Positions 5,615 to 36,930 of a stretch of DNA of 64,000 nucleotides are shown here, in pieces. The position numbers and the translations under genes are program-made. Under the pieces are notes generated by a model. It ran no database searches and was not told the origin of the DNA. It saw nothing but the letters and a program-made list of their open reading frames with translations. Within the stretch, counting starts at the first letter, position 1, and each line of letters opens with the position of its first letter. Origin of the DNA: Nitrososphaeria archaeon (GTDB lineage: Archaea > Thermoproteota > Nitrososphaeria > Conexivisphaerales > DTJL01); NCBI GenBank assembly GCA_029775965.1, contig JARVJU010000002.1:2578-66577 (forward strand), given 5' to 3'.

Positions 5615-6013
5615 GGAAAAGTTGCGGAACGACTACCCTTCTTTTTCACAAATGATCCTGTAAGTCAGCTGTAGGTTACTGCAGATTGAGTGCAAGTTTA
5701 AGATAGGCCTTCATGGCTTGAAGAAATCATAGCAAGGATTGCGCTAGGGCATAACAGGTTTAAGTTTGATGTCCCATACGCTGCATCAGGGAATCAGGTG
5801 TATCAGGCGGTCAGTTTATTTGAACACTATTACCATTTCAACCATAACATCTATATAACGCTATGTCAAAAAGATTATAGGCGATGGATTCCGCCGGAGC
5901 CTGACGGCTCGAACCGCTCCATATGGAAGCTGATGAATCCTATCGAACACATGTAATGGTATGGTGTCAACAGTTGCCGATCCAGTTAACTGCCATATGG
6001 AGGCTGTCTGCCA

Positions 6014-35508: not shown

Positions 35509-36249
35509 TTAGGCTTCACTTTGTATTATATCTTCCAGCTTATTCAAGCCTCCAACCTTTGTGCCATCGAGCATAAAAGCATCAAAGTTGCCACCAGATG
35601 AAAGAATTTTTGAAACATATGAGTTAGATGATTTTTCTGTAGCTTCGAAGACACCAGATAAGAATTCGTTGAAGGGAGGCATTATTATTATCTGTTTATC
35701 TTTGACACTACCTCTTATCCATAGCGGTACTACCTTTCTTCCAACTCTTATGGAGAAATGCCTGTGCCCCATGATAAGAATATCAGCTGTTTCTGCATCC
35801 TTGACTGGAAAGGCATGACCATGTAGCAGAGCTATCCTTGTGTTTCCGTCTCTATAGATCATACCTCTGCTTGATGCATACTGAATTGACTGGTCTGTTA
35901 TCTTCTCTAGGCCCGCATCATGATTACCAGGTACAACTGTTATTCTTTTTGCTCTTTTTTTCAAGATATTGAAAAAGCTAGATATTTCTGACATGACAAT
36001 TCTGGAAGTCCCAAGAATCTGATCCTTTATGTCGCCTAGTAGTATAACCTCCTCAGCTCCCGTCCTCTGTATCAGATTGACTATTCTCTTGGCCATAGGG
36101 ATGGTTTGGGATGGTATACGCACACCCTTACTGACAATAGACAGCTCATACCCGATGTGTATGTCAGATACTACTATTACTGTTTCTCCTATTGTAAGAG
36201 CTCTTTCGCCTGCAACAATTCTTATCGTTGCATGAACGCCTCCGATGCG
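35509..36249 (-). CDS. Metallophosphoesterase (archaeal SbcD/Mre11-related MPE family); start codon unresolved
   Basis: Motifs I-V are VSDIHIGYE, LLGDIKD, VPGNHD, LLHGH and MGHRH. Motif I lies upstream of the first canonical start (GTG 36123). The reading frame is open back to the TAA of the preceding gene (36250-52), with no ATG/GTG/TTG in between. Confidence 0.7.
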   Translation of the reverse strand, partial: RIGGVHATIRIVAGERALTIGETVIVVSDIHIGYELSIVSKGVRIPSQTIPMAKRIVNLIQRTGAEEVILLGDIKDQILGTSRIVMSEISSFFNILKKRAKRITVVPGNHDAGLEKITDQSIQYASSRGMIYRDGNTRIALLHGHAFPVKDAETADILIMGHRHFSIRVGRKVVPLWIRGSVKDKQIIIMPPFNEFLSGVFEATEKSSNSYVSKILSSGGNFDAFMLDGTKVGGLNKLEDIIQSEA

Positions 36250-36930
36250 TTATTCAAGTGTCAGAGGTACAACTTCGTCATAGGCATATTGTATGAGGTC
36301 TGATTCGTTAGCTTGGCTAAATACTGTTACGACACAATTCCTTGTGAGACCAACGATAAAACCCTTTGTCTTCGATTGTACAACTATGTACCATAACCTG
36401 CCATGCTTAAGGTAGTCATGGTAAATATCTGTGTCAGCAAGAGCTGAGCCATACAACGCCATCTTCTCTATGTTTGGTATGTCTACTTGATCGAAGAATA
36501 TTATCCTTGCGTCCTCAAAGCTAGATTCATAGTATTTTTCCATTGTTTCCGGCTTTATCCTTGCTTCTACTATCGAGCCAGGTTTCATGAAAAGTATCCT
36601 ACTCATGTCATTTGCAAGCTCATTCGCTCTTCTTTTCTTTTCGAGTATTATCAGGAACATCTGATCATGAATTCTCCTGATGGCAAATGTAGCAGACAGA
36701 GTCCTCAAGATTGGCTTGAGCTCTTCTCTTTGTTTTACTGTTATCACCTCATCCTTGTTTATCCTTCCTGAGATAGAGTCCCCCTCAGCCCTGAGATCCC
36801 TTATTTCAGTAACAAGCATAAGATTTGTGTTTGATTCCTCTTCTTCAACTCTGAATCCCTCCAGCTTCTGAAATATCTGGTCTAGCGAAAGAGGTTCTGA
36901 AAGTCTAAAGATCTTTCCTGCTAGCACCAT
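36250..36930 (-). CDS. Conserved-looking cytosolic protein of unknown function
   Basis: 226-aa ORF with protein-like composition and no motif I can name. It is in the same frame as, and directly abutting, the phosphoesterase coding region. Confidence 0.5.
   Translation of the reverse strand: MVLAGKIFRLSEPLSLDQIFQKLEGFRVEEEESNTNLMLVTEIRDLRAEGDSISGRINKDEVITVKQREELKPILRTLSATFAIRRIHDQMFLIILEKKRRANELANDMSRILFMKPGSIVEARIKPETMEKYYESSFEDARIIFFDQVDIPNIEKMALYGSALADTDIYHDYLKHGRLWYIVVQSKTKGFIVGLTRNCVVTVFSQANESDLIQYAYDEVVPLTLE

Follow-up and report, generated by a model that had tools for sequence, protein, structure and literature searches.

Among bacterial genes with weak initiation codons, infC and pcnB both start at AUU, and the rare starts of translation table 11 are ATT, ATC, ATA and CTG. 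Initiation at ACG is known from eukaryotes and their viruses (e.g. adeno-associated virus VP2, Sendai virus C′ and Arabidopsis AGAMOUS), and in plant organelles a genomic ACG can be made into an AUG start by C-to-U RNA editing (e.g. ndhD, psbL). Archaea select their start codons with the eukaryote-type factors aIF1, aIF1A and aIF2. The literature that we searched yielded no natural ACG start in archaea or bacteria, the cases found being confined to eukaryotes, their viruses and organelles. Here we describe a metallophosphoesterase nuclease gene on the minus strand of a 64,000 nt stretch (hereafter the window) of contig JARVJU010000002.1, from a Nitrososphaeria archaeon of the Conexivisphaerales (assembly GCA_029775965.1). 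No canonical start codon precedes its first catalytic motif. Comparison with related loci points to an intact gene for a nuclease of the type of the Pseudomonas putida protein MPE, probably starting at a conserved ACG-ATA dicodon (36228–36223) and, within it, at the ACG.

The locus resembles each of the described systems in part. As in eukaryotic ACG initiation, a conserved ACG stands at an N-terminal boundary, would presumably be read as methionine and would give low output, but the mRNA is instead prokaryotic and polycistronic, carries a Shine–Dalgarno (SD)-like element, has a stop codon 21 nt 5′ of the ACG, and involves no cap, scanning or Kozak context. With infC and pcnB it would share a gene-specific, maintained start other than AUG, GUG or UUG that limits or regulates expression, and the ATA next to the ACG is a table 11 start; it differs in that table 11 does not list ACG and in that no initiation-factor autoregulation is evident for this gene. 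The likeness to plant organelles lies in a genomic ACG conserved where a start should be. We know of no mRNA editing system in archaea, and it is very unlikely that the ACG is kept because C-to-U editing of the mRNA makes an AUG, which, if true, would make it the first archaeal case of mRNA editing to be reported. Genes with programmed readthrough or frameshifting, such as prfB, also comprise two adjacent ORFs (open reading frames) that share a frame in this genome and are separated by a single stop, but at our locus the two frames do not keep the same relation across lineages, a recoding signal is lacking and none of the listed homologues is a fusion. The start, and not the protein, is what is unusual: an ACG conserved at the level of an order, on a prokaryotic, polycistronic mRNA that bears an SD-like element.

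Reading the minus strand, a 226 aa ORF ends at a TAA (36252–36250), after which 42 in-frame sense codons (translated as RIGGVHATIRIVAGERALTIGETVIVVSDIHIGYELSIVSKG) precede a GTG (36123–36121) at which a mechanical ORF list begins a 204 aa ORF. None of these 42 codons is ATG, GTG or TTG. They include metallophosphoesterase motif I (SDIHIG, 36168–36151) with its metal-binding Asp22 and His24, placed 15 codons 5′ of the GTG, and motifs II–V follow downstream over 36036–35758 (GDIKD 36036–36022, GNHD 35928–35917, LLHGH 35829–35815 and GHRH 35769–35758). A preceding sequence-only reading had drawn attention to the open stretch, to the position of motif I within it and to the TAA as the in-frame stop of the 226 aa gene. 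All three observations were confirmed, the second also by a Pfam match, and the GTG is an internal valine codon rather than the start of the nuclease. By a rough estimate, 42 codons without a canonical start would arise inside a coding region with a chance of approximately 0.1–0.2, which is not improbable alone. The missing start is significant because the stretch is demonstrably coding, with a ratio of non-synonymous to synonymous differences (pN/pS) of 0.14–0.41, and because it holds an indispensable catalytic motif. The same lack of a canonical start recurs in independent assemblies of related lineages. A scan of all ORFs of at least 110 open codons in the whole window for long start-less 5′ extensions gave no second convincing gene, and the phenomenon appears specific to the phosphoesterase gene within the window.

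Ten lineages of Conexivisphaerales-like Nitrososphaerota were compared (the window, L037, L040, L042, L045, L046, L048, L050, L052 and L134), of which one was reached via the upstream protein and, the window aside, the others via the contigs of the closest database relatives. They represent about six deep branches with 40–53 % identity between branches, and the gene has a G+C content of 40–72 % in the nine lineages measured. Gene order is conserved and comprises PhoU_div, PHO4, two small genes, the 226 aa gene, the phosphoesterase, an S8 peptidase and QRPTase. The window, L037, L040, L050 and L052 have no ATG, GTG or TTG upstream of motif I, and the sole GTGs of L045, L046, L048 and L134 lie inside the conserved N-terminal region, near motif I. 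In L042, a GTG occurs five codons into the conserved region at a position where its sister L048 has GTC, and it is an ordinary synonymous valine variant. Comparison therefore supports the view that the true N-terminus is encoded 5′ of GTG 36123, with no canonical start to use; had a conserved ATG or GTG been lost from our sequence by a single-base error, the orthologues should have kept it, and the opposite was found, close orthologues being without one as well. For the first 47 codons, from the conserved threonine to the conserved Met45, pN/pS by lineage pair was 0.14–0.41 versus 0.17–0.50 for the rest of the gene, and synonymous sites were saturated even in the closest pair (pS 0.64–0.89). 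Throughout the clade the N-terminal residues T1, I2, E8, A10, L11, D22, H24, G26 and E28 do not vary, and invariant residues whose codons nevertheless vary include E8, A10, L11, D22, H24, G26, E28, G35 and P39. On this pattern of substitution the upstream 47 codons are evidently translated and under purifying selection.

Amino-acid conservation begins abruptly at a Thr-Ile pair (clade consensus TIEIVEGERAL...) encoded by a dicodon ACG-ATH, and in the DNA alignment ACGAT is the sole five-base block that is invariant. The threonine codon (36228–36226 in the window) is ACG in nine of the ten lineages despite its four-fold degeneracy, whereas the isoleucine codon that follows (36225–36223) is ATA in seven lineages, ATT in one and ATC in two. 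Among 30 columns with an invariant residue and at least three synonymous codons, ACG is the only one in which the codon is also invariant. All 18 invariant columns of the nuclease gene with two-fold degeneracy vary in codon, and only one of 65 comparable columns is codon-invariant in the upstream gene, which is far better conserved. By our own estimate, taken as the product of each lineage's own threonine codon usage, the chance of nine ACGs is approximately 1e-5. These data show that the ACG is under constraint at the nucleotide level. The 4–7 linker codons between the upstream stop and the conserved region are not conserved, and an additional in-frame stop lies one codon before the conserved N-terminus in L042 (TGA GTC ACG) and L052 (TAG CTG ACG). 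As read from the alignment, these stops confirm where the conserved coding sequence has its N-terminal boundary. On the same comparative grounds, a conserved non-canonical start evidently exists at the nuclease gene.

The sole exception to ACG, L134, has ACA for threonine with CTG immediately before it, and L052 also has CTG at that position. In a sister clade the equivalent position is occupied by TTG (L137, L055) or CTG (L057, L060/L139), and in L139 (sister locus L139/L140) GGAGGAGG is present 8 nt upstream of the CTG. L057 was also observed to have no canonical start within 74 open codons. Proteins of the Conexivisphaera type begin with ATG or GTG two codons earlier. A genome scan for relatives gave only distant matches of 23–35 % identity, and a metagenome scan gave, among the matches listed, relatives of 27–38 % identity that were used as outgroups. 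In outgroups, ATG, GTG or TTG is aligned within approximately two codons of the ACG. Across the wider family (those of L001–L036 and L054–L133 with locatable motifs), most loci have a canonical start 21–28 codons before the aspartate of motif I, and the ACG stands 21–25 codons before it. The state of L134 fits turnover of a start codon at one site, which may have run, in the order proposed here, from ATG or GTG through TTG and CTG to ACG. Our reading of these data is that the third base of the ACG is fixed only where no adjacent NTG exists, and that this gene seems prone in general to weak or non-canonical starts among Conexivisphaerales-related archaea.

A start at ACG would give a coding sequence (36228–35509) of 239 aa plus a TAA at 35511–35509. 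All five metallophosphoesterase motifs (D-x-H, G-D, G-N-H-[DE], H and G-H-x-H) are present and invariant in the clade, as are the residues D22, H24 and G26 of motif I, of which H24 and G26 also do not vary among 56 family members. The ORF extended upstream of the GTG matched Metallophos_2 (PF12850) at 37.5 bits, against a gathering score of 27, and Metallophos (PF00149) at 29.4 bits, against 21.5. Motif I is needed for the match, since it starts at residues 23–24 of the extended ORF. The best NCBIfam model was TIGR00024 (SbcD_rel_arch; 85.6 bits, E 3.9e-24, curated cut-off 115.2), and TIGR04123 (PdeM) scored 61.3 bits against a curated cut-off of 150. Residue 14 of the extended ORF corresponds to position 8 of the TIGR00024 profile, so that the N-terminus of the family is expected at approximately residues 7–9, and position 2 of the profile falls on the conserved threonine encoded by ACG. 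An AlphaFold model built with the 56 family sequences had a predicted local distance difference test score (pLDDT) of 92 and a predicted TM-score of 0.90. Its first beta-strand comprises residues 2–4, and pLDDT averaged 96 over residues 1–10. The nearest Protein Data Bank (PDB) entry was the P. putida single-strand DNA nuclease MPE (6nvo; sequence E 4e-13, Foldseek E 1e-9), which also ranked first in Foldseek, followed by Mre11/SbcD, purple acid phosphatase and LpxH. The window nuclease has in common with P. putida MPE/PdeM (6nvo, 6nvp; TIGR04123) and with TIGR00024 the five motifs and a comparable N-terminal segment before motif I. It differs from them in scoring below both curated cut-offs and in being partnered by an RdgC-like gene and not by Lhr or a ligase. 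Its genomic neighbours are the RdgC-like gene, the S8 peptidase, PHO4, PhoU_div and QRPTase, in place of the PdeM-type linkage to Lhr, a ligase or an exonuclease. It is an ordinary member of the metallophosphoesterase superfamily, near TIGR00024 and PdeM but under both curated cut-offs.

An SD-like GGAGG (36243–36239) lies 10 nt 5′ of the ACG and 5 nt 5′ of an out-of-frame ATG. In most of the nine ACG lineages, GGTG or GGAG(G) is found 8–10 nt 5′ of the ACG, with overlapping or tandem motifs in L045 and L048; L134 has no SD-like motif. This matches the neighbouring 161 aa gene, before whose clear ATG starts GGTG stands at a spacing of +6 to +8 nt and GGAG at one of +10 to +11 nt. The spacing would suit ACG more than ATA because the latter is three bases farther from the motif (11–13 nt). 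The ACG follows the stop of the upstream gene by 11–22 nt across lineages (21 nt after the TAA in the window), a proximity that makes coupling to termination plausible. A hairpin (GCAACGAU-AAGA-AUUGUUGC, 36234–36203) that would sequester ACG-AUA was seen in the window lineage only, and its z-score of −0.9 versus shuffled sequences is not significant. RNAalifold found no conserved RNA structure around the ACG other than a 4 bp helix inside the upstream gene, Rfam gave no match at the ACG region, and a tRNA scan found no tRNA genes in the window.

Taken together, the constraint on ACG, the in-frame stops, the N-termini of the family, the confidently modelled first strand and, less surely, the SD spacing favour initiation at ACG, and we consider it probable that this is where the initiator tRNA begins. 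The ACG would then be read as methionine to give a 239 aa protein beginning M-I-R-I-V-A-G-E-R-A-L. SD pairing could bring in the ribosome, as could coupling to termination, either of the upstream gene or of a three-codon mini-ORF, or the two could act together. The weak start may serve to keep the nuclease at a low level linked to that of its partner. In E. coli, ACG supports initiation with an N-terminal methionine at 0.1–1 % of the level of AUG, compared with 1–2 % for AUA, AUC, AUU and CUG (10.1101/063800). Ribosome profiling of Haloferax placed approximately 30 % of putative alternative start sites at near-cognate codons, although these were set aside by the authors (PMC7261190). Several points weigh against an ACG start. 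About six deep branches underlie the ten lineages; under the empirical null approximately two of 95 columns are codon-invariant, a rate not astronomically small; and ACA in L134 indicates that ACG is not absolutely required. ATH is just as universal (ten of ten lineages) and is an accepted rare prokaryotic start, and on comparative data alone it keeps some probability. SD-like motifs are uncommon before genes of this genome and too few for spacing statistics, so the spacing comparison rests on a handful of conserved neighbouring genes. Nor does start selection seem generally relaxed, as no other gene of the window has such a start-less extension. In bacteria, moreover, codons mismatched at the middle position, as ACG is, are among the poorest near-cognates.

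Initiation at the adjoining ATA (36225–36223), giving a protein that begins M-R-I-V-A-G-E-R and making the ACG the last three bases of the leader, is possible but a good deal more doubtful. An ATH stands at this position in every lineage including L134, which lacks ACG, and near-cognates mismatched at the third position reach 1–2 % of AUG in E. coli, above the class to which ACG belongs. Such a start would leave the strict conservation of the third position of ACG unexplained, and the isoleucine codon drifts between ATA, ATT and ATC like an ordinary sense codon. Its distance from the SD-like motif is longer than at neighbouring canonical starts, and the isoleucine itself is equally well explained as the first residue of beta-strand 1. 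The sequence-only reading had proposed initiation at ATC, ATA or ATT; its appeal to a non-canonical start stood, with ATA as the second candidate, but the ACG that conservation favours was not among the codons it named, and the first ATC is not conserved. A further proposal concerns delivery of the ribosome and not the identity of the start codon. Translation of the out-of-frame (+1) mini-ORF in the window (ATG CAA CGA TAA, 36233–36222), whose stop overlaps the ATA and which has the GGAGG 5 nt upstream, could end in re-initiation at the overlapping ACG/ATA. By inspection of the sequences, +1-frame mini-ORFs of 3–8 codons starting with ATG, GTG or TTG and ending at or near ACG-ATH (within approximately 10 nt) are present in eight of the ten lineages; in L040 and L050 an ATG follows the upstream stop by 1 nt, and in L037 a GTG abuts it. 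In most lineages, however, the GTG of the mini-ORF is that of the SD-like GGTG, whose fixed distance forces the +1 frame, and the mini-ORF is for this reason a probable by-product. The mini-ORF of L042 is in a different frame, L134 has none, the position of the stop is variable and no statistical excess of mini-ORFs was demonstrated, so that we regard re-initiation as unlikely.

NCBI protein P0001, from a Nitrososphaerota metagenome-assembled genome, is a 245 aa product beginning MGGVHATIR and was therefore annotated from the first ATC (36246–36244), a choice that gives the longest ORF with a table 11 start. This codon and the next seven residues are conserved in no orthologue (nor are the residues RIGGVHA), and the ATC overlaps the SD-like GGAGG and has no SD motif of its own upstream; it is probably not the real start, and we consider initiation there most unlikely. 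Readthrough of, or frameshifting at, TAA 36252–36250 would yield an RdgC-like/phosphoesterase fusion of approximately 470 aa, and a fusion gene recently split by a nonsense mutation would leave the same picture; the readthrough and the split had been offered in the sequence-only reading. The window, L040, L046 and L050 do have the upstream stop in frame with nothing else between. Across the clade, however, the frame of that stop relative to the phosphoesterase is 0 in five of the ten lineages, 1 in two and 2 in two, the extra in-frame stops of L042 and L052 intervene, and the linker shows no conservation. The upstream protein keeps a length of approximately 226 aa and the same ...VPLTLE end throughout, and none of 120 listed homologues is fused. 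Persistence of the arrangement across lineages at 40–50 % protein identity excludes a recent split, and readthrough, fusion and split gene were all rejected as extremely unlikely. A programmed frameshift at the conserved A-CGA-T, by which ribosomes on the mini-ORF would enter the phosphoesterase frame, would draw on the canonical starts of the mini-ORFs and on a CGA that all nine ACG lineages keep in the +1 frame. It also carries only a minute probability, since there is no slippery sequence, re-pairing after a −1 shift is impossible for the P-site codons CAA, AGA and CCA, a stop stands right before CGA in that frame in L052, L042 and L134 are without a +1 mini-ORF, and neither a conserved RNA structure nor an Rfam match was found. 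Finally, a start lost through sequencing error, a pseudogene, or a truncated enzyme without motif I has nothing to recommend it beyond the absent start. The sequencing error allowed for in the sequence-only reading is refuted because the arrangement recurs between lineages and in assemblies made independently, each of the five motifs is intact, and purifying selection on the N-terminus equals that on the rest of the gene; artefact and decay were rejected and are given next to no credence.

The partner gene upstream of the nuclease (36930–36250, 226 aa plus the TAA) encodes a protein with 303 homologues in TACK archaea, of which the 120 listed span 217–283 aa. Within the clade it is 69–76 % identical, compared with 40–47 % for the nuclease, and it ends at the same residue across lineages. 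It had no match in Pfam, in NCBIfam (RdgC models included) or among PDB sequences. Its AlphaFold model had a pLDDT of 91, and the best Foldseek hits were to RdgC (2owl and 2owy; E 5e-7, TM-score 0.59), so that an RdgC-like fold is predicted; the resemblance to RdgC, a toroidal DNA-binding recombination protein, is one of fold only. Of the fetched loci, 40 have the 226 aa gene immediately 5′ of the phosphoesterase and 80 others lack it upstream. On the downstream side, the first TTG of the S8 peptidase (35508–35506, minus strand) abuts the TAA of the phosphoesterase, and the peptidase gene as called in L037 shares 60 nt with the phosphoesterase. With the peptidase start taken as putative, this arrangement suggests that phosphoesterase and peptidase belong to one tightly packed operon. 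Elsewhere in the window, a fluoride riboswitch aptamer (Rfam RF01734) was matched at 5871–5949 on the plus strand with 38.5 bits, above its gathering score.

Database records of this gene do not agree on where it begins. N-termini in P0001–P0008 and P0015 are placed at ATC (245 aa), at a GTG in the conserved N-terminus or beside motif I (222–244 aa), or at an ATG after motif I (197–208 aa), and the NCBI pipeline gave three different N-termini in three genomes. The closest database relatives of the nuclease (38–46 % identity) are called at 197–231 aa and mostly start after motif I, and orthologues are also truncated by gene callers, to 197–208 aa. Most entries of this orthologous gene are without part of the conserved N-terminus, and several are without the catalytic Asp/His of motif I. 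Gene callers truncate the family to 197–231 aa, mostly removing the catalytic motif, and as a consequence databases misrepresent these enzymes.

A start at the ACG, if correct, would mean that natural selection has kept ACG as an initiation codon in an archaeon and across an order-level clade. Archaea combine bacterial-type mRNAs with eukaryote-type initiation factors, and the locus would offer a test of start-codon stringency that can be mutated. It may also serve as a case in which a weak start restrains expression of a nuclease beside a conserved partner that is predicted to bind DNA.

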